DNA from: Candidatus Woesearchaeota archaeon
GTDB taxonomy: Archaea; Nanobdellota; Nanobdellia; Woesearchaeales; JASKKU01
DNA: 64,000 bases
Direction of reading: 5' to 3'
Assembly: GCA_030154045.1 (NCBI GenBank)
Contig: JASKKU010000001.1
Coordinates: forward strand, 1,025 to 65,024
Both the position numbers and the translations under genes were made by a program. Of this stretch, positions 33,093 to 49,881 are shown in pieces (within the stretch, counting starts at the first letter, position 1; the number at the start of each line of letters is the position of its first letter). A model generated the notes under the pieces. The model was given only the letters and a program-made list of their open reading frames with translations, made no database searches and was not told the origin of the DNA.

Positions 33093-33111
33093 ACAGAAAC
33101 TTCAGAGTAAA

Positions 33112-33588
33112 ATGGAACGCAGAAAAAAATCAAGATACTCTCGCATTATCTTGTTATTAACTATTCTTTTAGTAGTTATTTTAACAATATCCTTGACTTT
33201 GTTGTATTATCTCAACCAATTCAAAAAGCCTGTAAAAACTCTAGTTCTCAAAACTAATGTAACAATTAGTGAACATAAAATAGCTTTCGACTTAGGTCAT
33301 AATGATTCTATAAATTTTGGTACTATAAAACGAGGAAGCGAATCAAAAAGGAGTTTAATCCTATACAACACCTTCAACTTCCCGGTTAAAGCCGAGATTA
33401 GTTGCAATGGTTCAATTTGCAACCTTTTGCTATTTGATAACGAAGTTTATCTTCAACCCAAAAGCCAGAAAGACCTTGAGTTCTTAGCCAAAGCTAACCC
33501 TTTTGAAGTTTTAGGTTACAAAGAAGGCAACATAACAATCGAAATTTATAGAGCCGTAGTTCCTAAGAATTATTCAACAAAACCATAA
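33112..33588 (+). CDS. small N-terminally anchored membrane protein
   Basis: Basic N-terminus then TM IILLLTILLVVILTISLTLLYYL; 158 aa. Confidence 0.3.
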   Translation: MERRKKSRYSRIILLLTILLVVILTISLTLLYYLNQFKKPVKTLVLKTNVTISEHKIAFDLGHNDSINFGTIKRGSESKRSLILYNTFNFPVKAEISCNGSICNLLLFDNEVYLQPKSQKDLEFLAKANPFEVLGYKEGNITIEIYRAVVPKNYSTKP

Positions 33589-33718
33589 AAAACAACTTAA
33601 AACCGAAAACTCATTCTGAAAAACATATCCGTTTATAAAAAGATCTTTAAATTCAACTTAAATTAAGTGCTCAAAAAAATCAAAAAGAATTTAAGTTAAT
33701 CCCAAATAAACCAAGAAA

Positions 33719-34900
33719 ATGTTTGATTTTCACAAAGACCCATACAAAGATTGTGGAGAATACCTTGTCGTTAAAACTGAAACGAACCCTGAAAACAAGA
33801 ATCTTTTAGACCTTTACTTCACAAACAATATTTTCTATCCTGGAGGTGCAGGCCAACCTGCTGACAAAGGGTGGCTTGAATTTAACAATTCTAAAATCGA
33901 AATCGTTGCCGCAAGAAAAAGTAACGATTATATTATTCTAAGCATTGAAAAAAACAAAGTTAAATACGAACTTCCAAAGATAGTTAAAGTGAAGATTAAT
34001 ATAAATCGAAGAAAAAAGTTAACAATCGCTCATTCTTCTGAGCATATCCTCTTTAAAACAATATTAAACAAATTTCCAAATGCAAAAAACCTTAAAGTAA
34101 AACTTGGCGAAGAGATAAGCGAAGTCTTTTTCGAATGCAAAGATTTTGATGAATCTGTGATAAGCGAAATTGAAGCAGATGCAAATGAAATCATTAAAAG
34201 AGAACTTGAAGTAAAAAGCGAACTCTTTGAAAAAAACGAATCAGAAAACATTAAAGAATTAAGAATAAAAAAAGACAGAATAAAAGACAATAAAGTAAGA
34301 GTTGTTAAAATTGGCGATTTTGACATATCAGCATGCGCAGGCACGCATGTCAAGAACACAAAGGAAATCCCTTTTATATTCATAGTTGGAATCAACAGAA
34401 AAAACAACGAAATCAAATTAAAGTTTACAAACAGCAGTGATGTATTATTTAACTTTGCCACGTTATCCAGAGATTTAATGCAAACTTACAAAAAAGAAAA
34501 CCTCAAAGAATTCTTAAGAAACACAATACACCAACAAAGTTATCTAAAACGGGATTTACGCTGGTTAATTAAAAATATAGAGAATCTAAAATCGACTCAT
34601 GAAAACAACATAATCAGAATAATTAACCTAGAAGGAATTACTAATGACTTACAAAACTTCATAATAAAAAATCTCAATAAAATAATCATCATTTCAAGAA
34701 TCCCTGGAACTGAAAAAACAAAAATACTTATCAAAGGTTTAGAAGGTTATACTATAAATTCATTAATAAGATCTTTTGAACTTAAAGGAAATCTCAACAA
34801 GGAAAAAGCAGTATTCCAAGGCGTTAGTGAAAAAGCTAATCCTGAAAAAATAATTGAGTTCCTCAAGAAACAGAATCTTATATTCATTGAATTAAAGTAA
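33719..34900 (+). CDS. alaX: AlaX-like tRNA editing protein (AlaRS/ThrRS second-additional-domain family)
   Basis: Zinc-binding HxxxH (HSSEHIL) and CxxxH (CAGTHV) motifs characteristic of AlaX/editing domains. Confidence 0.6.
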   Translation: MFDFHKDPYKDCGEYLVVKTETNPENKNLLDLYFTNNIFYPGGAGQPADKGWLEFNNSKIEIVAARKSNDYIILSIEKNKVKYELPKIVKVKININRRKKLTIAHSSEHILFKTILNKFPNAKNLKVKLGEEISEVFFECKDFDESVISEIEADANEIIKRELEVKSELFEKNESENIKELRIKKDRIKDNKVRVVKIGDFDISACAGTHVKNTKEIPFIFIVGINRKNNEIKLKFTNSSDVLFNFATLSRDLMQTYKKENLKEFLRNTIHQQSYLKRDLRWLIKNIENLKSTHENNIIRIINLEGITNDLQNFIIKNLNKIIIISRIPGTEKTKILIKGLEGYTINSLIRSFELKGNLNKEKAVFQGVSEKANPEKIIEFLKKQNLIFIELK

Positions 34901-35054
34901 ACCACAATTGAACTAAACTTTTTAATCTCTGAGCATAAAATATTTTCCAAATTTCTAAACTCTGAAAAAGATCTAATTTATGCAAGCTCCTTTTGAAAAG
35001 TTTTTGATTTTTTTCTAAGAATGCTATTAAAAACAAATAGCAAAAGAATGCTTT

Positions 35055-36335
35055 ATGAAAATAGACAAGATCGTTGAACGCGAGTTTGAATCTAAAAAAG
35101 CAAAAATAAACACATCAGACCTGCAAGCGTTCAGGCGCAACATTATAAAAAAAGTTATTCAAGAATACAAATCAGAGTTTGATCTTTTGGTCAGAACAAG
35201 AAAAGTAAACAGGCCTTTAATTAAGTTCCTAAATAAAATTGGCGAAGTAAAATACAAATACAAACACATACCTTACATAGCACTAACCACCTCAGAAAGA
35301 GAAGGAAAGGAATTATTAAAGTACTTTTATGAAGAAAGGGATTCAACTTTAATTCGTGAATACAGAAATCAAATAAACCTTTTAACATCAATAGACCTTG
35401 CCTCTAGCATTACAATCGAGCCACCAAAAAGGTCTAAAGTCGTCAAATCAGTTCTTGAAGAAGAGCTATGGAATTTATCGTTAATTGGCGCGTATTACGC
35501 ACAAAGAATCTCACTTGGAGATGATGTTACAATTGCTATAATAGATACAGGTGTAGATTATGAACATAAAGAATTAAAAGGCAACTTTGGCATGAAAAAA
35601 GGTTATGATTTCATAAGAGACAAAAATGATCCTTTTGATTATAACGGGCATGGCACTCACGTTGCTGGAATAATTGCTGGAAAAAATACTGGAATATCTC
35701 ACAATTCTAGGTTAATAGCCTTGCGTATTCTTGACGAAGACGGCTCAGGTACTGAATTTGACTTGATAAGAGCTTTAGAATATTGCTACGATAACAACAT
35801 TGATTTGATCAATATGAGTTTAGGTAGTCCCTATGCTTCAGAGGCACTTGAAGAGATTTGTTACAAAACTTCAACTAAAAGTATACTTATTGCCGCTGCA
35901 GGAAACGATGGAAATTATTTGCCAAATTATCCTGCTGCATTTGGCGAAGCAGTAATTTCTGTTGCTTCAATAAATCAGTATAAACAACATTCTTACTTTA
36001 GCAACCTCCATGAAACTGTTGATATTTGCGCACCTGGAGAGAATATTTACTCCAGCATTCCAAATGACAAGTATGATGTTTTTAGTGGAACATCTATGGC
36101 TACACCACACGTAACAGGTTCTCTTGCTTTAGCACTCTCGTTAGCAAAGAATTCAAGTTTCTTAGAAGAGTTAATGAAGAGTTCTGCAGAAAAACTCAAT
36201 CAAGAATTTGAATTCCCAAAAGAATACGCTTTTGGTTTCGGTTTAGTTAGAGTTGATAAAATGGTTAGCAAACTGAATAACGAAAATTCCCGAAGAATCA
36301 GAAAATTATTCAAAAAGATATATTCACGAAGGTGA
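35055..36335 (+). CDS. subtilisin-like serine protease (peptidase S8), no obvious signal peptide
   Basis: Catalytic triad motifs IAIIDTGVD (Asp), HGTHVAGIIAG (His), GTSMATPHVTG (Ser). Confidence 0.85.
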   Translation: MKIDKIVEREFESKKAKINTSDLQAFRRNIIKKVIQEYKSEFDLLVRTRKVNRPLIKFLNKIGEVKYKYKHIPYIALTTSEREGKELLKYFYEERDSTLIREYRNQINLLTSIDLASSITIEPPKRSKVVKSVLEEELWNLSLIGAYYAQRISLGDDVTIAIIDTGVDYEHKELKGNFGMKKGYDFIRDKNDPFDYNGHGTHVAGIIAGKNTGISHNSRLIALRILDEDGSGTEFDLIRALEYCYDNNIDLINMSLGSPYASEALEEICYKTSTKSILIAAAGNDGNYLPNYPAAFGEAVISVASINQYKQHSYFSNLHETVDICAPGENIYSSIPNDKYDVFSGTSMATPHVTGSLALALSLAKNSSFLEELMKSSAEKLNQEFEFPKEYAFGFGLVRVDKMVSKLNNENSRRIRKLFKKIYSRR

Positions 36336-36341
36336 TACAAA

Positions 36342-36749
36342 ATGCCAAACCTTGAGGATAAAGAAAACATAGCTAAAAAAGTGGATGATGCATACAAAGA
36401 TAAAGTATACAAATTAGATGATGACAAAGATATCGTAAATGAAAATCCCAAAGAAGGAACAGATACAATTGATGAAATAATCAAAAACCACGAACAAATT
36501 TACTTGAGAGTAAAACCCAAAGCTGAACTAAAAATTGCGACAATTTATGACAAAATCATTAATGATCTATCAAACAGATATGATTCAATGTTAAAACTTT
36601 ACAGACTAAAGATGATTGATGGATTGTTAATTGATTATTCTAAATTAAGCGATATTGAAAAAGAAACCTTTAAACAATACCTAACTGAGATTTATAACGA
36701 CGAAAACACAGAACTGTTTGTAGAAGGGTTAAACAAAGTTTCTTTTTAA
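36342..36749 (+). CDS. hypothetical acidic protein
   Basis: 135-aa ORF 6 nt after the protease stop; no recognisable motif. Confidence 0.3.
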   Translation: MPNLEDKENIAKKVDDAYKDKVYKLDDDKDIVNENPKEGTDTIDEIIKNHEQIYLRVKPKAELKIATIYDKIINDLSNRYDSMLKLYRLKMIDGLLIDYSKLSDIEKETFKQYLTEIYNDENTELFVEGLNKVSF

Positions 36750-36799
36750 TTAAACATTTTTTATGAATAAATTTTATTTTAAATATACTCTAAACTTTA

Positions 36800-38038
36800 T
36801 TAAAATTTCAACAAAGTCTTCAGCTCAGACTTTAAACGTTGCTCAAAACTTTTTTCTGTTTCGCCATCCTTCTTTTCTTCAGACAGAATCTTAAAGAGAG
36901 ATAAAATAAACTCCTTTTCCTGTTCTTTGTTTTCGTAAAGTTTTCCAAGGTTCTCGTTAATAACATCCTGTTCGATTTCTTTCGGAGTCCTGACTTCTAC
37001 AAAAACATCTTCGTAATCTGAACCAACAAGTTTGCTAGTATTCCTCATCACAAAGTACGCTGATTTACCCTTAATAAGTTCAGTAATCTTGTTAAAATCC
37101 ACTTCTGTTAAACTTGAGGTTAGTTTGCCTTCAAACCTCAACAAAACAATTGTATCAAAAAACTCTTCATGGGACAACTCAGTTAAGACCCTTTCTGTAA
37201 GTTCTTTTCCTGATAAACCGTTTGCATTAAACTTAAAGCATCTCACATTTTTCATCACTAAATCCTGTTTCTGTGTTTTAATTTGAGAATCTTCAACATC
37301 TACTATAAAGAAACTGCCTTTAAGTAACCTTTCAAGCTCTTCAAAGTTTGTTGGAAAAGTAGGCCCGGGAAAAACTATGCGACCATAACCTTCAACATCT
37401 TGGTCAAAAACATAATGGATATGGCCTCCAGCATAATAGTTAAAACCCTTTGGTAAAAGAGATAAAGGAATTCCTTTAATATTGGAAAACTGTTTTGAAG
37501 TCAACTCATCAATCGCGTTGTGGAACATAAAAATCTTGAAACCTTGCTCATCCTCTAATTCTTTCCTATTCAACAGCCTATATAACTCCAAATCCAAAGC
37601 GTTCCTCTTTCCAAGAATACCCGCAATCTTAACTTTTGTTTTCTCATCCTCAACAAAAGACAATTTTAACTCTTGCTCATTCAACTCACTAATTCTTGTC
37701 GCGTTCCTAATCAAACCAACGCTTGAAAGTATTCTTAAGAAAGTTTTATTGCTTGCCGAAAAATCATGACTGCCAGCAATAACATAAACAGGAATATCTT
37801 TTGTTCTCAACTTCTTAAGTGCTGCAATAACTCTTTCAAAAACATCGACACCAGGCAAAGGCGTATCAAAAAGGTCTCCAGAAATCAGAACAAAATCACA
37901 GTTTAAATCAACAATTTTCTCTAAAGCTGTTTCAAAAGCTTTTACAGACAACTCTTTCATTAAGGGATGATTCCAAGAACCTACATGACAATCAGCAAGA
38001 TGTGCAAACCTAAATTTCATAACCTTCACCAGATTCAA
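36800..38038 (-). CDS. mre11: DNA double-strand-break repair nuclease Mre11
   Basis: Phosphoesterase motifs [22 protein letters not shown]; 412 aa. Confidence 0.75.
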
Positions 38039-39648
38039 AATAATTCAAACTCTTTCTTATTCAAAGGAGTTTTTTCACTATCTCTTTTTTGAAGGAAATT
38101 TTCTTTATTAAACAAAGGCACTTTCACAGGGATTGCAAAACCGAAAAAGCTTGAAGACAAAATCGCTTCTCCAACATTAAGTGAAGCAATGCTTCTTTCA
38201 TCAGATGAAAGGTCATTTGGACACGATTCAATAATAGCTTGCCTCTCTGGTTTCATTTCAATTCCTAAAATAATTTTAGTATTCATATTTGCAAGAATCT
38301 CTCTAGGAATAAGAGAAGGCAACTGCGTTATTGCATACAATCCAATCTTAAACTTCCTTCCTTCTCGGGCAATTGTTGAAAATATATTTGAACCTGATTT
38401 AAGAACATCTTTGCCTAAAACTCTTGGCGCCTCTTCTAAAAGAATAACTATTTGAGCAGCATTATCTAAGGTGCCTTCTTTTTTGTAATGCATATACTTA
38501 TTAAAAAGTTTTGAAGCTATTGCTGAACCGATTAAAATCTCCTGAGAACTAGAAATATTTGAAGTATCTACAATTACTGTCTTTCCTTGTTCAAGAAGTT
38601 TGCAAATCCTATCAATAGCGCCCTCGCCAGCATTGTTGTTGTCGTTAAAGATTCCATTAAAAATTAACTGACCATTAGGACCGTCTTCAACATCCAATAG
38701 ATTAGCCAGCCTTCTCTTTAGAACCATTAAACTAGGTAATTGAACTGAGATAATTGACGGCTCCTCATCATTGAAAATTTGGAGTATCCAGGAATCTTTA
38801 TATTTCGCTTGGTATGCTAGCATCGCTTCTTTTTGTGCAGTGCTCCAATCAGCAACCGCAAAGAAATGAGTTGGTTTAAGTGTCCTTATATTTATTTTCA
38901 AACTCTGCGCTCCAGGAGGAACATTGTAGTTAGTAAAGTAAACAACATTTTCCTTATTGGGGTAATCCTTCAAACCAAAATGGCTCCGACCATAATACTC
39001 ATCATGAGGATCGAGTACAAGAAAACCTATCTTGTAATTTTCAACAAGATTCCATAATAAAACAGAGGTCAAATTAGACTTACCCCTACCAGTTGTAGCC
39101 GCAACAAGAACATGATGTCTAAAAACCTTCTCAGCATCAATATAAACAGGTACATTAACTTCATTAGAACCTGACCTTAAAAAACCAACAAAGGTAGCAT
39201 TCTCAGGTTTAGTTATTATCTCCAGATCTTTTGAATATAGTCTTCTAAACTTAGAGAATAAAGGTGGCAAAGACTTTGTCACACTTAAAGCCTTGTTTTT
39301 CTTATCAAAAAACAACAGGTTCTTGCAGAATGCAACAGAATAAAGTTGAAGCTCTTCGTCAAAAAAATCCGCATTGAAATCATGCTCTAGATCCATCCCT
39401 GAAATCATCTCTAAATTTGACAAAGAAATTTGACTGCTATAAGTTAAATCAAAAACCTGAATAAAAAACTTCGAATCATCATTCTCAAAAACTAAGATTT
39501 CGCCTAGTTGAACAAAAGAATCCTTCTTTAATCTAAGAATCAAAGAATCGAAACTGCCTCCAATCAGTTGGCCAACATATTCCATACATATAAAAGAGAA
39601 ATGCGTTTTATATAAAGATTTTGAAAAGAAAGATTTGAATCTAAACAC
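38035..39648 (-). CDS. herA: HerA-like (DUF87/FtsK-type) P-loop ATPase, translationally coupled upstream of mre11
   Basis: Walker [10 protein letters not shown] about 190 aa in, Walker-B-like VIVDTS; 4-nt overlap with mre11. Confidence 0.5.
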
Positions 39649-39725
39649 AACAGTTTCGTTAAAAATAAGTTGTCCTCAAAACAAACACAACTTTTTTATT
39701 TAACAATATTTGTCCTTAAATATGT

Positions 39726-39799
39726 GCCCCGTTAGTTTAGTTTGGAGAGAATGCGAGCCTGCGGAGCTTGTGGCCCGGGTTCAAATCCCGGACGGGGCG
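39726..39799 (+). tRNA. tRNA-Arg (anticodon GCG)
   Basis: Acceptor GCCCCGT/ACGGGGC, anticodon stem CGAGC/GCTTG with loop CTGCGGA, T-arm CCGGGTTCAAATCCCGG. Confidence 0.8.
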
Positions 39800-39848
39800 T
39801 ATAATATAAAAAAATTTAAAAAGAATCCAACATTAACGAGAGTAAATC

Positions 39849-40547
39849 ATGAACCTGCCGTTTATAGAGAACACAACCCAAAGAAATATTGGAATTATCT
39901 ACTTTCATCACATTAAGAATGTTCTTGCCATTGAAGTAGAATATCCTGAATTAAATGTAGACACTTTAATTCTTTCAAAACCAGATGTTACTGATTTCAA
40001 ACAAATCATTAAAGAATTTTTAGAGCACAATAACTTAACAAATTCAAGGAAAATTGAGTTCTTTAAAGAAGAATTCGAGATTCTATCAAATAAAGATATA
40101 AGAAATTATCATTTTAAACTAACAAATATTGGAGAACTATATCCCAAAGAGGTATTTTCAAATTTTCCAAAAAATGTGCTGGAGTATTTAATTACTTTAA
40201 ATTTTAATTTCAACTATTCGTTTGAAGTAGATTATCTAAAACATTCGGTTTCTGTTTATGGAGGTGTATATGAAAAAAATGATGATGTACAAACAAAAAA
40301 ACATTTTTTCATATTGGATTTCTGCGAATGTGATATTCTCTTACCTGAAGACTTAGAAAAAGAAACCGTTAAAATGTTAACTATTTGGTCAAAAAAATTA
40401 AAAAAAGATTTCGACTTTTTAAACAAGAGAAGAACATATCTTATTTTTGAGAAGGACCTAAACAGACAGGAAATCATAGAAAAATTTTCGAAACTTTTTA
40501 ATAGTCTTTCTGAACTTAAGAATAAAATAAGAATATTCACAAAATAA
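39849..40547 (+). CDS. hypothetical protein, first gene of the accessory region
   Basis: 232-aa ORF with no recognisable motif. Confidence 0.3.
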   Translation: MNLPFIENTTQRNIGIIYFHHIKNVLAIEVEYPELNVDTLILSKPDVTDFKQIIKEFLEHNNLTNSRKIEFFKEEFEILSNKDIRNYHFKLTNIGELYPKEVFSNFPKNVLEYLITLNFNFNYSFEVDYLKHSVSVYGGVYEKNDDVQTKKHFFILDFCECDILLPEDLEKETVKMLTIWSKKLKKDFDFLNKRRTYLIFEKDLNRQEIIEKFSKLFNSLSELKNKIRIFTK

Positions 40548-40559
40548 TTAAAGGCAAAA

Positions 40560-41357
40560 ATGAAAAGTTTCAAGAAAATTAAGCCTTTTAAGTTAGTCCT
40601 TTCATCATTCTTGATTTTATTGATCGGATTTTTAATCTGGACATCTTTGAATCATAATTTGAATTTTAAAAGGGAAAATATTGTAACCTTTGTACCAGTT
40701 ATTTCTAAATATATTTCAACTGCAAGCACATCTTACAAAAACCTTTCGTGCAAGGATTTCATAAACTTAAGCAATAAAAAGCTCATTAAAGAACATGCGT
40801 ACAATCGAACAGTGAAAGATTCAAAAACAGGTTCACTTTATAAGAACTACATTTTAACTAAAGTTCAAAAAGAGTATTTCAACGCCACCCCTTTTACAGT
40901 TTATACTTCTACACAATATGAGTATTTAAACAACAAAACAATATTTTGTGGAATTAAAAAGAAATATGTAATTAATAGCTCTGATAGAGAATCTTTAAAG
41001 AGATTATATCAGCTTTTCTTAAATAACTTCTCAAAGAAATTTGAACCTATTGAAAAGTTTCAATGTGAAAATTCAGATATTGAATTTATCCTTGGAAAAA
41101 GAGGAGAAATTTATGGGATTTTAGGCGTTTTTACAATAGATCCTGATGTGAAGGTATCTTATAACATAAATGATCCTAACGCGAGAATAGTTACTGCGAG
41201 CGAATGGTTCAAAGGAGAATTTGATGAGTATGTTCTTTTTACTGAATTTAAGGATATCTCGCCCTTGGATAGGTTCAGGGTTACACTAGAATACATCTTA
41301 GACCATGTTTGTTACCCCAAAGAACGGCAAAAGTTTTTTTATTCAAAGATAATTTAA
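40560..41357 (+). CDS. N-terminally anchored membrane/secreted hypothetical protein
   Basis: TM LVLSSFLILLIGFLIW; convergent with, and 4 nt overlapping, the stop of HXS-repeat gene 1. Confidence 0.3.
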   Translation: MKSFKKIKPFKLVLSSFLILLIGFLIWTSLNHNLNFKRENIVTFVPVISKYISTASTSYKNLSCKDFINLSNKKLIKEHAYNRTVKDSKTGSLYKNYILTKVQKEYFNATPFTVYTSTQYEYLNNKTIFCGIKKKYVINSSDRESLKRLYQLFLNNFSKKFEPIEKFQCENSDIEFILGKRGEIYGILGVFTIDPDVKVSYNINDPNARIVTASEWFKGEFDEYVLFTEFKDISPLDRFRVTLEYILDHVCYPKERQKFFYSKII

Positions 41358-41983
41358 TTAACACAACAAATAGGATAACTTGGATTAGAACAATCTTTTG
41401 CACCTACAGAAGTACCACCATAGCCACGACATATTGATACTGATTCAACGCACGCACCATTTTCTGACAAACAATTTGCGTGAGTACTATGGCTAGCATG
41501 ACTAGAATGACTACCATGACTTGAGTGACTGCCGTGACTTGAGTGACTGCCATGACTGCCGTGACTTGAGTGACTGCCATGACTGCCGTGACTTGAGTGA
41601 CTGCCATGACTACCATGAGTTGTATGACTAGCATGAGTAGCATGAGCGATATGACTTGAATGACTGCCGTGAGTTGCATGACTACTGTGACTTGAGTGAG
41701 TGCCGTGAGTGCCATGAGTGGCGTGACTGCTGTGACTACCATGACTACCATGAGTACCATGAGTAGCATGGCTGCTGTGACTCGCATGAGTGCCATGAGT
41801 ACCATGGGTAGCATGATGTGCGTGTTTTGCCGTAGCTGAATTAACTAAAACAGGGGCATTAAAAAAATTAAAGAACGCAGCTGCTGATAGAAAAACACCC
41901 GTACTTACCAAAGAATGCTTATTTGTCAAACCGTCTTCACTTTTAATAAAATACCTTATCCTTTTTTTAAATTTAGGAAACAT
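41354..41983 (-). CDS. His-Xaa-Ser/Thr tripeptide-repeat protein 1: conserved signal/leader-like N-terminus, 40 consecutive H-x-x repeats, C-terminal 6-Cys domain
   Basis: aa 54-173 are strictly periodic HAT/HGT/HGS/HSS... tripeptides; N-terminus MFPKFKKRIRYFIKSEDGLTNKHSL plus a hydrophobic stretch ending VNSATA; C-terminus CLSENGACVESVSICRGYGGTSVGAKDCSNPSYPICCVN. Confidence 0.8.
   Translation of the reverse strand: MFPKFKKRIRYFIKSEDGLTNKHSLVSTGVFLSAAAFFNFFNAPVLVNSATAKHAHHATHGTHGTHASHSSHATHGTHGSHGSHSSHATHGTHGTHSSHSSHATHGSHSSHIAHATHASHTTHGSHGSHSSHGSHGSHSSHGSHGSHSSHGSHSSHGSHSSHASHSTHANCLSENGACVESVSICRGYGGTSVGAKDCSNPSYPICCVN
41465..41824. repeat. tandem 9/27-bp DNA repeats encoding the HxS/T tripeptide array of gene 1
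   Basis: Near-perfect 27-mer gtgacttgagtgactgccatgactgcc repeated 3x around 41527-41610; the antisense ORF 41404..41814 in the track is an artefact of this repeat. Confidence 0.85.
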
Positions 41984-41985
41984 TT

Positions 41986-42420
41986 TTAGGTTATATTGGG
42001 CAGAGATGAACAGTGAGTGGCATGATTGCTGTGACTCGCATGGGTAGCGTGAGTGCCATGGGTAGCATGAGTACTATGACTACCATGACTGCCATGAGTA
42101 GCATGAGTAGCGTGGCTGCTGTGGCTTGAGTGAGTACCGTGAGTAGCATGACTGCTGTGGCTACCGTGAGCAAGATGGCTGGCATGACTAGAATGACTGC
42201 CGTGAGTTTGATGAGAAAAATGACTAGAATGACTAGAATGACTAGAATGACTACTATGACTACTATGACTACCATGCGCCACTGCTAATTTTGAAGTTAT
42301 AATAGAACTTACAGCAAAAGAAGTAAAGAATACTCCAGCACTAATTAAAGAATGCTTATTACTCAACCCTTCTTCACTTTTTATGAAATACATTATCCTC
42401 TTTTTAAACTTTGGAAACAT
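41986..42420 (-). CDS. His-Xaa-Ser/Thr tripeptide-repeat protein 2 (paralog): same conserved N-terminus, 30 repeats, short SLPNIT tail
   Basis: N-terminus MFPKFKKRIMYFIKSEEGLSNKHSL is nearly identical to gene 1 at both protein and DNA level; aa 49-138 are HGS/HSS/HAT... tripeptides; 2-nt spacing to gene 1 and 9 nt to the upstream radical-SAM gene. Confidence 0.8.
   Translation of the reverse strand: MFPKFKKRIMYFIKSEEGLSNKHSLISAGVFFTSFAVSSIITSKLAVAHGSHSSHSSHSSHSSHSSHFSHQTHGSHSSHASHLAHGSHSSHATHGTHSSHSSHATHATHGSHGSHSTHATHGTHATHASHSNHATHCSSLPNIT
42007..42276. repeat. tandem 9-bp-unit DNA repeats encoding the tripeptide array of gene 2
   Basis: catgac/tagtcat-type 9-mers repeated; the antisense ORF 41991..42275 is an artefact. 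Confidence 0.8.
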
Positions 42421-42428
42421 GCAAACAC

Positions 42429-43931
42429 CTATTTTACAGGCTTAAGTTCATCATCACCAAAAATCTTAAGATATTCTCTATGCACGCCTTCACAAATATC
42501 AAAATACTTACATTCTCTACATTTTAAAGTTTTTGCTTTTAAATTATTCTTGCGAGTTGTGTTATACTCCTTATCCAATCCATCAGGATTGGCCATAAAT
42601 CTTTTTTCAGCCATATGTAATTCAACCACATGATTTTCATAACCCTGCATATAACACAAAGGAATTGCTTCAACATTTAACATATAATTATTCTCAATTG
42701 CTAAATCCAGAGCTTGATGAACATATGGAACAACATCTCTAATTCTTGGAATTAAAAGGTCAACATGTTTCAACGCATTACCTTCTGGACTAATAAACAT
42801 AAATTCAGAAAACATTCTCGGTAAATCTTTGTTTAAATTAATAAGGAACCTTACAATATCTGTAAGATGCTTATAATTAAGCTTGTTAATAACAGTAATT
42901 GTAGTATAAAGCACCTCAGGATACTTTTTCGCGTTTTCAAAAGCTTTCATTAATTGCTTGTAGTTGCCTTTAACGCTGGAAAGAGTATCTACAATCTTTT
43001 CATCAACATCGTCAAATGAAAAAGCTATATGATTCGCTCCGGATTCAACAAGTTTATCAAAAAAAGGTTGATAAGACAGCATGCGACCATTTGTAATAAC
43101 CTGCACTTCATAATAACCCATATCTCTAGCTGCCCTCGTTATGAAAAAGATATCCTTTCTTATCGTTGGCTCGCCACCTGTAAAGCTTACTTTCATTGCT
43201 CCAGCCTTCCTTCCGATAAACAAATCATTTAATATATCTTTTGTTGATTTTAATTTCTCTCCAAGATGACCTACGCAACAATACAAACAATTGTTGTTGC
43301 ATAAATAACCAGTTCTTATATCTATCCTAGGCATCTCTTTTCCAGAATTAGGAATCTTCTTCAAATCATAATACTTCTTATAATAAATGTAAAACCCTTT
43401 ACAAAATTTCTTTAGTTCACAACCATTGCATTTTTCTAAGTAAATGTGTTCTTTACCAGGATCATTATCAGAATCAAATTGTCCCTCCCTATTAATGAAC
43501 TTCTGATCAAATTCGTAGTTTCTCGCTTTTAAATCTGAGACATACTTAAAGAATTTCTTATCAATAAAACAGAGAGGAACCCCATCAACTCTAACCTCAA
43601 AACCCTTAGAATCACAAAACTCTAAAGTCTTATTCAAAACGTCTTGAAAAAGTTCAAGAGGAGTAGCTAACGGAACAACCTCATCAATATTTTGTGAGAA
43701 GCGAACAAGATTTGTTATCTGTAAATAAAAGTTATCAGATATTGAAAAAACTCTTCTAGCAACATCAAACAGTTCAGAATAATTCAAACTGTTCACAACA
43801 AAAACAACCCCGGTTTTAATTTTGGTCTTAGCGAGAGCCTCCAAAGCATCAAACTTCTTCTCTAACAATTCAACAGAGGATTTTGATAAAAACGAAAACA
43901 GGAACTTATCCCGGGTAGGAACATGAACCAA
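42429..43931 (-). CDS. two-module radical-SAM protein: N-terminal degenerate half-domain fused to a complete radical-SAM/twitch-like module
   Basis: Module 1 has PLCFID and CNGCELKKFCKG but no CxxxCxxC. Module 2 has CNNNCLYCC, GGEPT, IPLCYMQGY, CRECKYFDICEG and the tail LKIFGDDELKPVK. Confidence 0.8.
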   Translation of the reverse strand: MVHVPTRDKFLFSFLSKSSVELLEKKFDALEALAKTKIKTGVVFVVNSLNYSELFDVARRVFSISDNFYLQITNLVRFSQNIDEVVPLATPLELFQDVLNKTLEFCDSKGFEVRVDGVPLCFIDKKFFKYVSDLKARNYEFDQKFINREGQFDSDNDPGKEHIYLEKCNGCELKKFCKGFYIYYKKYYDLKKIPNSGKEMPRIDIRTGYLCNNNCLYCCVGHLGEKLKSTKDILNDLFIGRKAGAMKVSFTGGEPTIRKDIFFITRAARDMGYYEVQVITNGRMLSYQPFFDKLVESGANHIAFSFDDVDEKIVDTLSSVKGNYKQLMKAFENAKKYPEVLYTTITVINKLNYKHLTDIVRFLINLNKDLPRMFSEFMFISPEGNALKHVDLLIPRIRDVVPYVHQALDLAIENNYMLNVEAIPLCYMQGYENHVVELHMAEKRFMANPDGLDKEYNTTRKNNLKAKTLKCRECKYFDICEGVHREYLKIFGDDELKPVK

Positions 43932-44212
43932 AAGAGAGTCTAAGCCTGCAGATTCCAGTTTTTTCGCAACCTCTTCCGTAATTAAAGTGCCGTTTGTTTG
44001 AAGATGAACCTTAGCTTTTTTCTTGGCTTCTTTAATAACTTCAAAGATATCTGGCCTAAGCAGAGGTTCTCCCCCTGTAATTATAATCTGTTCAACTGAA
44101 TCGAAAGAATTTATTTTTTCAACTAAGTCTTCAAAAGAAGGTTCTCTTAACCCCCTCTTACGAGTACAATAAATACAATTTTGGTTGCAATCACTCGTTA
44201 CCTGTAATAAAC

Positions 44213-45232
44213 CTATTTTAATTCTCTCACCTCTGAATAAACTTCAAGATATTGTTTCCAAAAACCAGGGCATTTGTTCTTAAAAGGACAAACTTTGCAT
44301 TTTTTAACCCTTTCCCTAAACTGATTTAAGGTATAAAGCATATTCTTCTCAGGCTTTGAAAGATAGCATAAGGGAATGTTCTTTGTAAAAACCTTGTTCT
44401 GCTTATCAAACTCAAAACACTTATAAAAGTACTCCTTTAAATCTTCAAACTTTGGTGCAAGTATAGAATATCTTAATTGAGCATCACCGCCAGGCTCAAC
44501 ATAACTTAACTGAATCTCATCCACAAGATTATAAAAAAGTTTTACCATCTCAAAGATTTCTTCAAAATTCTGTTTTAAGATCACAAAGTTTATTTTAAGA
44601 ATTAAATCATCGTATTTTAAATCGTAGAGGTTCTTTAAACCTTGTACGGCTTGTTTAAAACTCCGAGGAGTTCGAGTAATTGCATCATGAGTTCTTTCAT
44701 TAGAACCAAGAATAGTAAAAGCGATCATCAAAGGCAACTTCAATTCAACAAGCCTTTTAGCAAACTCTTTGTAAGCAAACATACGACCGTTTGTTGGGAA
44801 GAAGATAGGAAAGTTGTACTTTTTAAGATGTTCAAGAATTTGAAAAATATCTCTACGCAAAGTAGGCTCTGCACCGTGTAAAACTATTAGTTTTTCTTTT
44901 CCAGTTAACAAAGAATCAAAGCTTGAAATAATCTCTTCAAAACTCGGGTCATCAACTTTGTTCCTAGATGATTCAAAACACATAATGCAATTATTATTGC
45001 ATTTTTTTGTTATAAAGAACTTCTTTATACCTGAAAGATTCAAATTAATTGCGCCAGGTTCACAAACATTAACGCACTTCATACAGCCTAAACAAATGTC
45101 TGCATCAGGAGCAAACACCTTGCCGTTTTCAAATTTAAACAGTTGTTGTGGGCAGACATCAATACATTTTAAACATGAATTACACTTTTTTTCGTCCACT
45201 TCAATCCGTGAAAGAGAATTTATTGCTTTCAT
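44213..45232 (-). CDS. 2x[4Fe-4S] ferredoxin domain fused to a radical-SAM/twitch-like enzyme
   Basis: N-terminal CNSCLKCIDVCP and CLGCMKCVNVCEP; radical-SAM CNNNCIMC, GAEPT, IPLCYLS, C-terminal CKVCPFKNKCPGFW. Confidence 0.8.
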   Translation of the reverse strand: MKAINSLSRIEVDEKKCNSCLKCIDVCPQQLFKFENGKVFAPDADICLGCMKCVNVCEPGAINLNLSGIKKFFITKKCNNNCIMCFESSRNKVDDPSFEEIISSFDSLLTGKEKLIVLHGAEPTLRRDIFQILEHLKKYNFPIFFPTNGRMFAYKEFAKRLVELKLPLMIAFTILGSNERTHDAITRTPRSFKQAVQGLKNLYDLKYDDLILKINFVILKQNFEEIFEMVKLFYNLVDEIQLSYVEPGGDAQLRYSILAPKFEDLKEYFYKCFEFDKQNKVFTKNIPLCYLSKPEKNMLYTLNQFRERVKKCKVCPFKNKCPGFWKQYLEVYSEVRELK

Positions 45233-46098
45233 TTTTTAACATCTTTAACAGGTTTAAAGTCTGAATAATTTTTGAATATCAAAAGATTTTGTTTATAGTA
45301 ACCATTACAATTCTGCTTTAAAACACAGGAATTGCATTCTGACAACGGGAAAACATACCTATCATCATGAATAAAGTCTTCTCCAATAACGTGCTTTCTA
45401 AATTCATCTTCAAAAATACACGGGGGTATATTAAAAACAAAAACACGATCATCAACTAAAGCATCTTCTATATGGGGTTTAATTTGTGAGAGAGAAACAT
45501 AAATCAGATCTTTATTATTAAGACTTCTATTCAAGTAGAGAGGATAATCTAAATAAACATTTTTCGTGGGAAAAAAATTCCTAAGAAACAATACTGTTTC
45601 CTTGAGTTGTTTATAATTTTGCTTAAGAATAACAATCATAAAATAAATATTCAAATCAGCTTCTTTTATAAATTCTAAAGCCTTAACAACTTGATAAAAA
45701 CTACCTTTAACCTTTGTGATTTCATCAAACGTTTCAGGATCTTTTGAATGAAAAGTTGTTCTGATTATATCAATATGTTCTTTGACTTTTTCAAAAAACG
45801 GCTTAACCGAAAGCATTCTGATATTTGACTGCAAACTAATTCGTGTATTCGGATAATTTCTTCGTAAAAATTTCAGGAAATCCAAGAAATAAGGCACTAT
45901 TGTTGGTTCTCCACCGGTTATTTGTATCTCCACAGCAGATTTTGGAATTTGTTTTAAAACCTCTTTTTTTACAAAGGAATATTCAAAAAAAGGTTCATAA
46001 TTTGTTTCAGTATGACAATAAACGCAATGATTATTGCATTTTGTTGTTAAGATAATTGCAAACTTGTTTCCAATAGACTTATGGATCTCAAAAGGCAT
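45229..46098 (-). CDS. radical-SAM/twitch-like enzyme (paralog)
   Basis: CNNHCVYC, GGEPT, IPPCIFED, C-terminal CNSCVLKQNCNGYY; 4-nt overlap with the downstream gene. Confidence 0.8.
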   Translation of the reverse strand: MPFEIHKSIGNKFAIILTTKCNNHCVYCHTETNYEPFFEYSFVKKEVLKQIPKSAVEIQITGGEPTIVPYFLDFLKFLRRNYPNTRISLQSNIRMLSVKPFFEKVKEHIDIIRTTFHSKDPETFDEITKVKGSFYQVVKALEFIKEADLNIYFMIVILKQNYKQLKETVLFLRNFFPTKNVYLDYPLYLNRSLNNKDLIYVSLSQIKPHIEDALVDDRVFVFNIPPCIFEDEFRKHVIGEDFIHDDRYVFPLSECNSCVLKQNCNGYYKQNLLIFKNYSDFKPVKDVKK

Positions 46099-46219: not shown

Positions 46220-46783
46220 GTGAACAAACTTTTATTTCAACTAATCTTGTATTTTATAATTTACTTATGTGGATCTTTTCCATCAGCTTATGTTGTAACA
46301 AAAATTTTTGCAAAAAAAGACATTCTAAAAATTGGTTCTGGTAATGTCGGGGCGCGAAATGTTTACGAGAATGTTAGTAAAAAATTAGGAATTATCACCT
46401 TTGCCTTAGACTTCAGCAAAGCAGTTGTAGCTTTTATTATATACTCAAAATACAATCTGTTTTTCACCTTGTCTCTATTAATGCTGGTCTTGGGACATAA
46501 TTTCTCGATCTATTTGAAATTTAAAGGAGGCAAAGGACTCGCGAGTACACTTACGTTCTTATTACTAAAAAATCCACTTCTCGCTATTTTTTCTATAATA
46601 ATCTATCTCATCACAAACAAAACTATCAAAAATATGGCTCTAAGCGTAATGTTGACAATTGCTCTATTATTAATTTTAACCAACATTTTTATTGAAAGAG
46701 ATATATTTATAAGCCTACTCCTTTGGATGGCTCTAACAATAAAATGGCTCCCGAACAAGAGGAACTTAGCAAACAAGAACTAA
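46220..46783 (+). CDS. plsY: PlsY-family acyl-phosphate:glycerol-3-phosphate acyltransferase
   Basis: YLCGSFPSA, GSGNVGARNV and LGHNFSIYLKFKGGKGLAS match the PlsY signatures YLxGSIxSA, GSGNPGATNV, LGHxxPxFxxFKGGKGVAT. Confidence 0.75.
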   Translation: MNKLLFQLILYFIIYLCGSFPSAYVVTKIFAKKDILKIGSGNVGARNVYENVSKKLGIITFALDFSKAVVAFIIYSKYNLFFTLSLLMLVLGHNFSIYLKFKGGKGLASTLTFLLLKNPLLAIFSIIIYLITNKTIKNMALSVMLTIALLLILTNIFIERDIFISLLLWMALTIKWLPNKRNLANKN

Positions 46784-47925
46784 TTAATAAGATCAAAGCA
46801 ATTATACCTGAATTCAAAGAGTATGTTAACTTAATAAATAGTATTAATGTATTTCCAATAGCTGACAAAGATACAGGCACGAACATTTATCTCACTCTCA
46901 AAAAATTTCTAGAATTAAATCGCTTTGAAGGTTTCGGAAATTCAGGCAATATTCTTGAGATCTTTGGGAACTCTCTCTTAAACAATCTTGGAGAAAAATT
47001 TACAATAAAACAGTTAACATCCGCAATTAAATCAGCTATATCTGAAGTTGAAAAATCTATTTTAAACCTTAAAGAGGGAACAATCTATACTGCTATGAAA
47101 AGACTATACGCTTCTTTAATTCAAAACAAAAACTTAAACGAAATAATCATAGGCTTATATCAACAAGTATTAGAAAGTAAAGAATATATGAAAGATTACA
47201 CTAACCAAGATGTTGTTGATTCTGGTGCTTTAGGATTTCTTATTTTTCTATGGTTGTTTAACAACAAAAAACCAGAGATAAACTTTAAAGATTTACAAAA
47301 ACCAATTGACAAAAAAGATTTCGAAGTTTATTGTATAAACATAACTTGTACTGATTATGAAGAAGAAAAGATAAAGACTCTTGATTCGGTAATTATTCAC
47401 AAGACACATAATGAGTATAAAATTCACTTTCATTCTCCCGATCTAAAATCAGCTCTTGAATTTAATAATCCAAAAATATTAAAAATAACTTTGCCAGAGA
47501 GTAATCAAAAAAAGACAAAAATATGTTATTTTTGTGAAAATGAAGAGGAAAAAGAGTTCTTTAGTAATTTGGGCTTAGAAACCGTAAGTTCAATTGAAGA
47601 AATAATTCTAAAAACAAACCCTTTACAAACCTTATATATAATCCCTGAAAGAAAAAAAGAGATTTTAGACTTGATCAATTTAGATGCAATAATTATTCAA
47701 AAAAGTGAAGAAGTATTAGCCTTATTAGAGGTTATCAGTTTAAAAACAGAATTTGACAAAGATGAGATAAATAACAAATTAAAAAAATATGCTTTAGTTG
47801 AAAATCCAAGTGAAGAACATGAAGTTATTTTCAAAATAAGTCGAAAAGTTAAAGAGGATTCTGTTTATTTCCCTTTCTTACATTGCAAAGAAAAGTTTTT
47901 GGTCAAAAAGAAAGATGTCTCATAG
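46723..47925 (+). CDS. DAK2-domain protein (fatty-acid kinase FakA-like / DhaL-like)
   Basis: INVFPIADKDTGTNIYLTL and FGNSGNILEIFGNS match the DAK2 signatures NVYPVPDGDTGTNM and RGNSGVILSQ; the start may be the second Met (MAPEQ, ~46744). Confidence 0.6.
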   Translation: MDGSNNKMAPEQEELSKQELINKIKAIIPEFKEYVNLINSINVFPIADKDTGTNIYLTLKKFLELNRFEGFGNSGNILEIFGNSLLNNLGEKFTIKQLTSAIKSAISEVEKSILNLKEGTIYTAMKRLYASLIQNKNLNEIIIGLYQQVLESKEYMKDYTNQDVVDSGALGFLIFLWLFNNKKPEINFKDLQKPIDKKDFEVYCINITCTDYEEEKIKTLDSVIIHKTHNEYKIHFHSPDLKSALEFNNPKILKITLPESNQKKTKICYFCENEEEKEFFSNLGLETVSSIEEIILKTNPLQTLYIIPERKKEILDLINLDAIIIQKSEEVLALLEVISLKTEFDKDEINNKLKKYALVENPSEEHEVIFKISRKVKEDSVYFPFLHCKEKFLVKKKDVS

Positions 47926-48988
47926 ATTTAAAAAATAAATAAAGAATAAAAAACAAGAAAGTAAAGATTAAAAAAGATTTTACATATTTAAGAATATAAG
48001 ACACCAGAGAAACATCTTCAAAAGCCTTAGAAAAAATATAAGCCTTAGAAAAATTTCCACCAGGATACTGAGAATATATCCTTTCGGCATATATATAGAA
48101 AAGTTGCCTTTTGGAAAACAGATCACTAAAAAAAATTTTAGAGATCTTTATTAAAGGCAAGATTCTGAAATCTTTAGAATAAATATAAAGCCAGCGAATA
48201 TTTAATTTAGCTTTTTCATAACAGTTATCTTTAAGTTGTTTGGGTACTTTAATCCCTAAAAGATTTTCTAAACGATAAATCTTAAAAGAGCAATCATAAA
48301 AATCATCATGAACCAAAAAGAATTCTAAATGTGAAGAAATATTTTTAAGAAGTGAATCTTTAAAGCTACAGTTAATCAAACTACAATAATAGGCAAAGTG
48401 TACATTTGAAACGAAATCAAAATTATGGGGTGTAGAAATATTCTTTTCAAAAACTTCAAAAAGACCGTATGTTTTATTTAAATTAAAAGAATCAATAAAA
48501 TTTGCATTAAAATTAAAGTCAGAAAAATTGTGTTTGAGATCCTGAAAAATAAAAGTATATGTTAAAGCTGTGTCATCTAAATCAGCGCCATATAATGAAT
48601 AAAGAGGAGTATAAGTGAAAGCAATTGGAATATTATCTTGCTTTAGATTGATTCTTAATTTTAAATAATTAAAAAGCGCTTCTTTAAAAGACTGAGGCAT
48701 AATGTTTTTAAATTCTCCGATAGAGCAGATTAAAGGAAAGAAAATATTCTCATCGAGATATTTATATGAATCCGTAAACTCTGATCTAGAAAGATAAGCA
48801 TTCTCAAGTTTTGAAATTGATAATGTTGATTGCTTTGAAGCATACGTTCTCAAAAAGAATCCATCAATAACCTCAGATTTAAACTCTTGATAAAAATAAA
48901 AAAACTGAACTAAGAAAAAAAGAGTGAGAACTAAAAAGAAAACGAACAAAAAACAAGAGCTCCTTTCTAATAACTTTAGTTTATTCAT
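47903..48988 (-). CDS. N-terminally anchored membrane protein of unknown function
   Basis: TM FLFVFFLVLTLFFLVQFFYF then an Asn/Phe/Tyr-rich domain. Confidence 0.3.
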   Translation of the reverse strand: MNKLKLLERSSCFLFVFFLVLTLFFLVQFFYFYQEFKSEVIDGFFLRTYASKQSTLSISKLENAYLSRSEFTDSYKYLDENIFFPLICSIGEFKNIMPQSFKEALFNYLKLRINLKQDNIPIAFTYTPLYSLYGADLDDTALTYTFIFQDLKHNFSDFNFNANFIDSFNLNKTYGLFEVFEKNISTPHNFDFVSNVHFAYYCSLINCSFKDSLLKNISSHLEFFLVHDDFYDCSFKIYRLENLLGIKVPKQLKDNCYEKAKLNIRWLYIYSKDFRILPLIKISKIFFSDLFSKRQLFYIYAERIYSQYPGGNFSKAYIFSKAFEDVSLVSYILKYVKSFLIFTFLFFILYLFFKSMRHLSF

Positions 48989-49844: not shown

Positions 49845-49881
49845 AATAAAAACAAAGTAATATTTAAAAAGTATTTAATCT

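Follow-up and report, generated by a model that had tools for sequence, protein, structure and literature searches.

HxsA-like genes with length-variable H-x-(S/T) coding repeats in a putative expanded HXS-like radical SAM cluster of a DPANN archaeon

Introduction

The HXS system of E. coli and Klebsiella, with the gene order HxsD-HxsB-HxsC-HxsA, is an anti-phage system that depends on every one of its HxS repeats (Li et al., Nat Commun 2026, PMC13128918). This function was shown only in 2026, for a five-repeat effector, and almost all described HXS systems (99.7%) are found in Pseudomonadota; for the E. coli system +8 Da was reported on SHRSS (PMC13128918). Repeat-length polymorphism is undescribed in the canonical system. 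Here we analyzed a 64-kb stretch of DNA (the window) that appears to carry a much expanded DPANN relative with two effector-like genes, A1 and A2, whose arrays differ in length between co-occurring populations.

Similar to E. coli and Klebsiella HXS, the locus encodes His-x-Ser repeat proteins with a presumed N-terminal export and processing region, the genes follow the D-B-C-A order with the HxsA-like genes downstream, and HxsB scores above the curated cut-off. In contrast to E. coli HXS, it has 30-39 triplets instead of five, two HxsA paralogs and, in place of a single HxsC domain, about ten HxsC-like ones, among them two fused doubles. Further differences from the E. coli system are a Cys-rich tail on A1, the lack of a peptidoglycan-binding domain in both paralogs, few basic residues in the repeats and an archaeal (DPANN) host. 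The uncharacterized NCBIfam variant families HxsA3 (NF038309), HxsA4 (NF038313) and HxsC4 (NF038332) gave the highest model scores for A2, A1 and several radical SAM proteins, respectively.

Two other groups offer a comparison. Three-residue cyclophane RiPPs (triceptides) with His motifs are represented by HaaB and HtkB (PMC11499958). As with the triceptides, radical SAM/SPASM maturases would act here on repeated aromatic-x-x triplets of a ribosomal precursor, and the HxsB of the window has homology to GrrM, FxsB and YhhB-type cyclophane synthases; unlike A1 and A2, triceptide precursors carry few motifs and are not signal-peptide proteins. Coding minisatellites (VNTRs) are known from surface-exposed and secreted proteins of microbes, such as the collagen-like Scl proteins of streptococci. 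The arrays resemble these in their in-frame perfect tandem repeats, strain-dependent copy number and tendency to break short-read assemblies, but differ from the Scl VNTRs in that the unit is presumably an enzymatic modification motif in an archaeal radical SAM system.

Two HxsA-like genes and their proteins

A1 and A2 are tandem paralogous genes, and the repeats are the coding sequence of their H-x-(S/T) triplet arrays.

41354-41983, minus strand: A1, 209 aa, HxsA-like, with leader, hydrophobic segment, 39 H-x-x triplets and Cys-rich tail
41825-41983, minus strand: A1 N-terminal leader with the sequence MFPKFKKRIRYFIKSEDGLTNKH, followed by a signal-peptide-like hydrophobic segment whose last residues, ATA, directly precede KH
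41474-41824, minus strand: A1 H-x-(S/T) array, 39 triplets, 34% His
41357-41473, minus strand: A1 C-terminal tail with 6 Cys (CLSENGACVESVSICRGYGGTSVGAKDCSNPSYPICC)
41986-42420, minus strand: A2, 144 aa, HxsA-like, with A1-type leader, 30 H-x-x triplets and the short tail HCSSLPNIT
42007-42276, minus strand: A2 H-x-(S/T) array, 30 triplets

Both proteins have a leader followed by a hydrophobic segment; in A1 hydropathy peaks at residues 24-38, and cleavage of this signal-peptide-like region is predicted. The A1 array consists of 24 H-x-S and 12 H-x-T triplets among its 39, the A2 array of 18 and 10 among its 30, and His makes up 33-34% of the residues in the two arrays. A1 matched HxsA4 with 73.3 bits (cut-off 55), a match confined to the low-complexity repeat region, while A2 matched HxsA3 over the full profile (1-81) with 51.8 bits, below the cut-off of 65. 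Neither protein's profile matches included the canonical HxsA model. A Pfam search of A1 and A2, the Cys tail of A1 included, returned no domain, hence no peptidoglycan-binding domain. In their architecture, A1 and A2 resemble HxsA. The leader motif, xP-x-(I/F)KK-x-I-x-x-FL-x-SEEG-x-IxK, is common to 51 of 118 database relatives. Across the family H-x-S arrays range from 6 to 41 units, and the A1 array is the longest among the 53 leader-bearing proteins compared.

We rejected a recent gene conversion event between the two genes, whose longest exact string in common is 18 bases and whose leaders are 75% identical at the DNA level. We also rejected the plus-strand ORFs over the arrays (such as 41521-41631 and 42130-42288) as genes, since they are mirror images of the repeat, and took collagen and Scl profile matches on the arrays as triplet-periodicity artefacts.

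The neighboring HXS-like cluster

A1 and A2 sit at the downstream end of a cluster of HXS-like genes.

42429-44192, minus strand: double radical SAM protein with two HxsC-like domains, directly upstream of A2; Pfam Radical_SAM in two stretches, 159.5 bits
44213-45232, minus strand: HxsC-like radical SAM protein with N-terminal 2x[4Fe-4S] ferredoxin domain; TIGR03977 112 bits (cut-off 268), Pfam Radical_SAM and Fer4
45229-46098, minus strand: HxsC-like radical SAM protein; TIGR03977 115 bits (cut-off 268)
51614-52525, minus strand: HxsC-like radical SAM protein; TIGR03977 121.7 bits
52568-54448, minus strand: double HxsC-like radical SAM protein; TIGR03977 229.6 bits
54430-55368, minus strand: HxsC-like radical SAM protein; TIGR03977 60 bits
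58173-59138, minus strand: HxsC4-like radical SAM protein; NF038332 158.5 bits (cut-off 500), TIGR03977 101 bits
59139-60671, minus strand: HxsB radical SAM/SPASM maturase; TIGR03978 414.9 bits, above the cut-off of 370
60951-61496 and 60709-60948, minus strand: HxsD-like protein and small HxsD-related protein; TIGR03976 48.0 bits (cut-off 50), NF038315 32.5 bits (cut-off 41)

On the minus strand the order runs from D (61496) and B (60671) through the C-like genes to A2 and A1, corresponding to HxsD-HxsB-HxsC-HxsA, and about 5 kb of unrelated genes (46220-51105) divides the cluster. Only 8 bases separate the double radical SAM gene from A2, and 2 bases separate A2 from A1. The cluster contains about ten HxsC-like radical SAM domains, and HxsC (TIGR03977) or HxsC4 (NF038332) was the top profile match for eight genes, with best scores below the respective cut-offs (229.6 vs 267.9 and 164.8 vs 500 bits). 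Sub-threshold scores were likewise obtained for the 42429-44192 product (HxsC4 153 bits, HxsC 113 bits), whose frame is open to 44192 with a first canonical start (TTG) at 43931, and for the three genes at 51614-55368 (HxsC4 82-165 bits). The HxsD-like gene, missed by Pfam, was found via tblastn with HxsD proteins of related loci and via NCBIfam. Its product (60951-61496) shares 39% identity (E=2e-27) with the PF27806 HxsD of comparison locus L015 and partly keeps the LLNDYxLRE motif, as QLINYAFYE. PADLOC 2023, which has no HXS model, reported generic radical SAM (pVip) and HerA matches only. By gene content and order the cluster appears to be an HXS-like, expanded relative of the HXS system in a Woesearchaeota-like DPANN archaeon.

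Perfect repeat tracts within diverged arrays

A first-pass annotation of this DNA had described near-perfect 9/27-bp tandem repeats in both genes. This holds for the following tracts, but elsewhere the arrays show 62-72% matches per 9-bp unit.

41526-41611, minus strand: A1 perfect period-27 tract, 86 bp, 3.2 copies, encoding (GSHGSHSSH)x3; a hot spot of strain differences and contig ends
42219-42253 and 42247-42272, minus strand: A2 perfect period-9 tracts of 35 and 26 bp, encoding (HSS)n; a second hot spot

No other perfect tandem tract with a period of 4-60 exists in the 64-kb window, and those listed cover about 86 bp of the A1 array (351 bp) and about 54 bp of the A2 array (270 bp). For the A1 array as a whole, TRF reported a period of 9 with 36 copies and 67% matches. 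The annotation had also placed a 27-mer three times in a row at about 41527-41610. In the phase that it quoted, gtgacttgagtgactgccatgactgcc, two copies are exact (41534-41560 and 41561-41587) and the third (41588-41614) has one mismatch, while the same unit shifted by 7 bases, GACTGCCGTGACTTGAGTGACTGCCAT, does occur in three exact copies. Searching for the 27-mer in 100 shuffles of the sequence gave no matches.

Outside the perfect blocks, the same triplets are encoded by mixed synonymous codons (CAT/CAC, GGT/GGC, AGT/AGC/TCA/TCT), while within the A1 tract the synonymous codons are identical across three 9-codon units. None of 5000 protein-preserving synonymous-codon shuffles reached the 86 bp of the A1 tract (mean 22, maximum 77), and the DNA identity in A1 is therefore greater than the protein repeat demands. 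For A2 the excess was marginal (p about 0.04), with 210 of 5000 shuffles of the same kind reaching 35 bp. Both arrays are mostly old, with units diverged at synonymous sites, and each holds one young block.

Length variation among sister populations and orthologs

Comparison contigs were taken from sister samples (project SRR238238xx), with the Logan contigs assembled at k=31, and all of them are short-read assemblies. Over 9.8 kb, contig L002 departs from the window only in one 18-SNP patch and in both repeat blocks: the 71 differing alignment columns comprise 18 at 39010-39268, 24 within the A1 block and 29 within that of A2, with none elsewhere. The A1 of L002 is 18 bp longer (215 vs 209 aa) and carries substitutions in addition, while its A2 is 18 bp shorter and has 11 substitutions, at 42219-42272. 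The A1 block of L004 is 18 bp shorter than that of L002, and the one of L005 has two extra 9-bp units; all A1 differences of these three contigs lie within 41493-41613. In these assembly-level data at least four versions of the A1 block were present across five samples, and the A1 and A2 arrays vary independently of each other. The length changes were in frame (+18, -18 and 36 bp), with the exception of an apparent 16-bp insertion in the k=31 contig L005 (8-bp unit CCATAGTA three times), which would shift the frame. Taken together, these contigs support the view that the repeat blocks differ in length between closely related populations with conserved flanks.

More distant sequences point in the same direction. 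The orthologs L012 and L013 (about 80% identity) have perfect tracts of their own, with periods of 36 and 18 bp and in different places; expansion is therefore local and specific to each lineage. P0001 and L013 differ in length by 36 bp. The recent expansion and the variation between strains in 9-bp steps that had been predicted from the window were thus both supported, the former by the A1 tract, which lies beyond codon-shuffle chance, and by the different periods and places of the ortholog tracts, the latter by L002, by the further versions in L004 and L005, and by P0001 and L013. Array indels in frame were also found in four of six other HxS protein clusters (at least 90% identity), all from short-read assemblies in which collapse could mimic deletions. 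The lengths in these clusters were 129/117/102, 180/150, 247/238/232 and 198/195 aa, in steps of 3-30 aa that are each a multiple of 3 aa.

Origin and possible role of the repeat blocks

We consider it highly likely that the repeats are H-x-(S/T) coding arrays with young in-frame duplications and length turnover, and that their products would be exported and HxsA-like. The young block arose by in-frame tandem duplication, of a 27-bp unit (three triplets) in A1 and of a 9-bp unit (one triplet) in A2, and it is at these blocks that closely related populations differ, with whole 9-bp units gained or lost (+18, -18 bp) and unit variants reshuffled. Mutation probably proceeds by slipped-strand mispairing or by unequal recombination of identical units, in which the frame is preserved because the unit is a multiple of 3. 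Array length turns over continuously, since orthologs and the wider family show independent in-frame expansions and deletions. A1 and A2 themselves would be HxsA-like substrates or effectors. Their conserved leader is probably recognized by the HxsB, HxsC and HxsD-like products of the upstream genes on that strand, and export would then be directed by the signal-peptide-like segment, in which A-x-A immediately precedes the first His. The predicted end product is an extracellular repeat protein that is rich in His and modified by radical SAM enzymes. On the model of E. coli HXS the array may act as a multivalent unit, in which case length changes would tune dosage and valency, and function would not be destroyed. 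If repeat number matters, the natural length variants could serve as a ready allelic series for the number of modified H-x-S units needed.

A more speculative proposal, which is compatible with this explanation and to which we give a low probability, is that the A1 and A2 arrays serve as contingency loci in an expanded HXS-type system of archaea, beyond mere neutral turnover of repeats. The triplets would be separate radical SAM modification sites on an exported effector or surface protein, slippage in the perfect blocks would keep altering how many modified units there are, and selection on unit number, in conflict with viruses or the host cell of the archaeon, would maintain the hypermutable blocks; if true, archaea would possess a hypervariable, enzymatically matured defense or surface protein. 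Consistent with this, E. coli HXS is anti-phage and requires each HxS repeat (PMC13128918), A1 block versions abound against almost no flank variation, the two paralogous arrays vary independently, and array size differs widely in the family. A high mutation rate alone, however, accounts for variation concentrated in perfect repeats, and an anti-viral function is established in Pseudomonadota only.

It is improbable that copy numbers and alleles are assembly artefacts, produced by collapse, expansion or mis-threading of what is really one fixed sequence in the population. The first-pass annotation had warned that the arrays collapse in short-read assemblies and that true lengths may differ, and small-k contigs do break in the tract. 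Five Logan (k=31) contigs stop inside the A1 array: L001 ends at 41582, a k=31 de Bruijn branch node predicted from the window sequence, and L003, L004, L005 and L006 end at 41513-41594. L010 ends at 42257, within the A2 perfect tracts, and a 40.7-kb k141 MEGAHIT contig of an orthologous locus also has its end within an array. Array deletions between near-identical database proteins are, moreover, just what collapse would yield. In the de Bruijn graph of the window, however, the sole ambiguity at k=31 and k=55 (41526-41611) is gone at k>=77, and an ordinary 150-base read is longer than the tract with its 86 bp. This confines collapse to small k and makes the copy number in the window plausible. 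A2 of the window is matched 100% by L001, the product of an independent assembler. L002, L004 and L005 carry substitutions besides length changes, and versions vary by sample while 9 kb of flank is identical. The repeat block of L002, with a longest perfect tract of 41 bp at period 18, is unbranched and, because it has no repeated 31-mer, represents a resolvable path and not a collapse. Since assemblies break in the arrays, HxsA-like genes are likely to be truncated, mis-sized or missed in MAGs, and repeat counts from such short-read assemblies are unsafe at face value.

We see little likelihood that A1 and A2 are secreted His-rich metal-binding proteins unconnected with the neighboring radical SAM enzymes. 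Their His content, the lack of Pfam domains and the unrelated genes that split the cluster would fit such a role. Against it, the leader motif is shared with HxsA3/HxsA4-type proteins, A2 starts 8 bases past the double radical SAM gene, the orthologous cluster of L020 runs without interruption, and relatives in a Diapherotrites archaeon and Omnitrophota bacteria adjoin HxsD and radical SAM genes. It is most improbable that protein constraint, with few preferred His/Gly/Ser codons in an AT-rich genome and no recent duplication, explains the tracts, because although the protein is repetitive and shuffles reach up to 77 bp in A1 and at least 35 bp in 4% of cases in A2, none attained the A1 tract, codons are mixed outside the blocks, and it is the perfect blocks, rather than the diverged parts, that differ between strains.

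Further relatives

An exact protein look-up of A1 found no record, and protein-cluster searches for A1, A2 and the A1 version of L002 were likewise negative. An exact look-up of the 500-aa form of the radical SAM gene was negative too, and querying contigs with the 339-aa radical SAM protein added none to those already found. In L022/L023, which represent a 59%-identical ortholog, no HxS gene follows the double radical SAM gene. A GTDB scan with the radical SAM gene revealed only two distant multi-radical-SAM clusters, L007 (labeled Campylobacterales) and L008 (Aenigmatarchaeota), with no HxS genes in the retrieved DNA, and L007 and L008 are for this reason uninformative on repeat counts. Cys-rich tails are also found in relatives. 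An Omnitrophota protein named HxsA4 (P0067) has the same leader and long Ser/Gly/His arrays.

Two adjacent histidine-array genes and their repeat tracts

A1 and A2, the two HxsA-like genes encoding H-x-(S/T) triplet repeat proteins, are immediate neighbours.

41354-41983, minus strand: A1, ORF of 209 aa
41986-42420, minus strand: A2, ORF of 144 aa, adjacent to A1

At the N-terminus both products carry the conserved sequence MFPKFKKRI.YFIKSE(D/E)GL.NKHSL; a hydrophobic segment closed by A-x-A (ATA before KH in A1, AVA before HG in A2) and a His array follow. His occupies every third position of the array without interruption (39 triplets in A1, 30 in A2) and makes up 33-34% of its residues, with Ser or Thr as the usual third residue of the triplets. 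The C-terminal tail of A1 contains six Cys, while A2 ends in HCSSLPNIT. The leader motif was present in 51 of 118 database relatives, which have arrays of 6 to 30 triplets; the A1 array was the longest among the leader-bearing relatives examined.

The first-pass annotation described near-perfect 9/27-bp tandem repeats in both genes. This holds for one block in each gene but not for the arrays as wholes, since the agreement between 9-bp units elsewhere is only 62-72% and identical tripeptides are encoded there with mixed synonymous codons.

41526-41611, minus strand: A1, perfect periodic tract of 86 bp, period 27, 3.2 copies
42219-42253, minus strand: A2, perfect period-9 tract
42247-42272, minus strand: A2, perfect period-9 tract

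Besides these blocks, no perfect tandem tract of period 4-60 was detected in the whole 64 kb. The 27-mer reported as occurring three times consecutively (GGC AGT CAT GGC AGT CAC TCA AGT CAC on the minus strand, translated as GSHGSHSSH) is present in two exact copies (41534-41560 and 41561-41587) and a third with one mismatch (41588-41614); moving the phase by 7 bases yields a 27-bp unit that is exact in all three. Matches to the 27-mer were obtained in 0 of 100 shuffles.

Recent duplication in A1 and, less securely, in A2

Synonymous codons were shuffled among positions with the protein sequence unchanged (5000 trials), and the longest perfect periodic tract was recorded. In the A1 shuffles this tract had a mean length of 22 bp and did not exceed 77 bp; because the observed 86 bp were never attained (0/5000), the A1 block is a young DNA duplication. 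The 35 bp observed in A2 were attained in 210 of 5000 trials; this block is consistent with a young duplication as well, but less securely. With 75% identity in leader DNA and no exact string of more than 18 bases in common, A1 and A2 are old paralogues, so each block originated inside its own gene.

Length variation between populations

All comparisons were made at assembly level; those between populations used Logan contigs (k=31) with the same locus from one sequencing project (SRR238238xx).

L002 (SRR23823802), covering window 32560-42367: 71 differing alignment columns
L004 (SRR23823815), ending at window 41594: another A1 version, 18 bp shorter than L002
L005 (SRR23823825), aligned up to 41557: two extra 9-bp units and an apparent 8-bp unit three times, putative frameshift
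L010 (SRR23823831), ending at window 42257: A2 block with four changes that look synonymous

The differences between L002 and the window were confined to the A1 block (41539-41613; 24 columns, net +18 bp, giving an A1 of 215 aa), the A2 block (42208-42271; 29 columns, net -18 bp) and 18 SNPs at 39010-39268, with none elsewhere in 32560-42367. The diverged array parts were identical and only the perfect blocks varied. At the level of these assemblies the predicted length differences were therefore borne out between populations, with L004 and L005 providing further A1 versions. Collapse during assembly does not account for the L002 block, which contains no repeated 31-mer and thus represents an unbranched graph path.

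Each array is an in-frame coding minisatellite with one young perfect block (less secure in A2), and in the contigs compared these blocks are where populations differ in length and sequence. Whole triplets would be gained or lost when identical units undergo slipped-strand mispairing or recombine unequally.

The final ~100 bases of L005 (~41476-41490 of the window) carry, where the A1 array meets the Cys tail, what appear to be three copies of the 8-bp unit CCATAGTA. The apparent +16 bp, seen in this single 1.8-kb contig, would lead to a premature stop and loss of the Cys-rich tail. The 18 SNPs of L002 are clustered in a 259-bp stretch inside a HerA-like gene (38035-39648) and look like a small imported recombination patch.

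Behaviour of the arrays in short-read assemblies

Collapse of the arrays in short-read assemblies had also been anticipated. In a de Bruijn graph computed from the window's own sequence, branch nodes within 41300-42500 were confined to 41526-41611 and occurred at k=31 and k=55 only, with none at k>=77. Contig L001 (SRR23823818) was 100% identical to 47930-41582, reproduced A2 exactly at full length and ended precisely at the predicted branch node, 41582. Ends within the A1 array were also found for L004, L005 and L006, L010 ended within the A2 block, and two orthologous loci, L020 (a 40.7-kb MEGAHIT contig) and L013 (a JGI contig), had array-internal ends too. Small-k assemblies do break in these arrays, but the 3.2 copies of the window are plausible, given that the 86-bp tract fits inside a normal read and is resolved at k>=77. 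L003, likewise from SRR23823818 and entering the A1 tract from the left, ended at 41545, 10 bases short of the predicted node at 41555, and may reflect a co-existing variant in that sample.

Orthologues and the wider family

As expected from the first-pass annotation, repeat tracts differed among orthologues. The orthologous loci L012 and L013, whose radical SAM gene is ~80% identical, contain an A1/A2-like gene pair with 22-39 triplets, and their perfect tracts (75-78 bp long with a period of 36, and 40 bp long with a period of 18) differ from those of the window in period and position. The database relative P0001 is near-identical to the first HxS gene of L013, yet differs in length by 12 aa (36 bp). 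In other lineages, four of six clusters of HxS proteins with at least 90% identity contained array-internal in-frame indels (lengths of 129/117/102, 180/150, 247/238/232 and 198/195 aa), some of which could be collapse artefacts.

The A1-like gene of L012 (3691-4654) runs past the HxS array into a non-repetitive C-terminal region of >130 aa and off the contig end, placing a long C-terminal region where A1 has its Cys-rich tail; proteins of this type appear to have exchangeable C-terminal modules.

An HXS-like gene cluster

By sequence, the window DNA is archaeal: it carries an archaeal SRP RNA, an intron-containing tRNA and genes for RNA polymerase subunits A', B' and B'', and among named relatives RpoA' is most similar to Woesearchaeota (62-70% identity). 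Upstream of A1 and A2 lie the following genes.

42429-44192, minus strand: double radical SAM gene upstream of A2, frame open to 44192, two Pfam Radical_SAM domains
44213-45232, minus strand: HxsC-like gene upstream of the double radical SAM gene
45229-46098, minus strand: HxsC-like gene, likewise upstream
46220-51105: ~5 kb of unrelated housekeeping-like genes splitting the radical SAM cluster
51092-51610: DUF116 protein gene, inside the cluster
51614-55368, minus strand: three HxsC-like genes beyond the unrelated genes
55393-57045, minus strand: Npun_F2552-like region and 2x[4Fe-4S] ferredoxin domain protein, inside the cluster
57076-58125 (region 55393-58125), minus strand: ORF with zero family matches, inside the cluster
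58173-59138, minus strand: HxsC4-like gene
59139-60671, minus strand: bona fide HxsB (414.9 bits, cut-off 370)
60709-61496, minus strand: small HxsD-related protein and HxsD-like protein

The radical SAM genes are contiguous in the orthologous L020 (626-303-285-339-592 aa), and relatives of A1/A2 in a Diapherotrites archaeon and in Omnitrophota bacteria adjoin HxsD and several radical SAM genes. Like the canonical HXS system, the window combines HxS repeats and HxsB with the gene order D-B-C...A. Its HxsC-like and HxsD-like proteins score under curated cut-offs (48.0 bits on TIGR03976 for the latter, cut-off 50; 39% identity to a PF27806 HxsD), and its HxsA-like proteins lack the peptidoglycan-binding domain. 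A1 exceeded the NCBIfam HxsA4 cut-off via its repeat region (73.3 bits, cut-off 55), while A2 remained under that of HxsA3 (51.8 bits, cut-off 65) in an alignment spanning the whole profile.

In E. coli, N-terminal processing of HxsA requires HxsB, HxsC and HxsD, a +8 Da change is found on an SHRSS motif, all five HxS repeats are individually required, and the protein acts in the periplasm, blocking phage DNA entry (PMC13128918). A chemical parallel comes from radical SAM cyclophane synthases that have His-x-x motifs as their targets (PMC11499958). The locus is probably a divergent relative of the HXS system and would work like it. A1 and A2 would be HxsA-like substrates or effectors, exported after the HxsB, HxsC and HxsD-like machinery has recognised their leader. 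Instability of perfect coding repeats is well known; new is its setting in an expanded archaeal HXS-type cluster, with predicted effector arrays that are long, duplicated and length-polymorphic.

Several further features of the region were observed. No ATG, GTG or TTG start codon was found upstream of TTG 43931 in the double radical SAM frame (to 44192), and the open frame 43931-44192 encodes the first radical SAM motif, CNQNCIYC. The window has TTA where the L020 gene starts at a TTG, and ATT where L022, a 59%-identical orthologous locus without an HxS gene after the double radical SAM gene, has ATG; the start codon may have been lost, a near-cognate start may be used, or reinitiation past the upstream gene's stop may occur. 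Among the genes at 46220-51105, several of which look bacterial, are those for a PlsY-type acyltransferase and for Dak2-like, DegV-like and Lnt-like proteins. Just past A1 (36800-39648), a pair encoding a HerA-like ATPase and an Mre11/SbcD-like phosphoesterase matches PADLOC HerA models (best 94.6 bits), but could equally be ordinary archaeal repair genes. Near-identical multi-radical-SAM clusters occur in L007 (binned as Campylobacterales) and L008 (binned as Aenigmatarchaeota); probably either one bin is wrong or the cluster was transferred between them.
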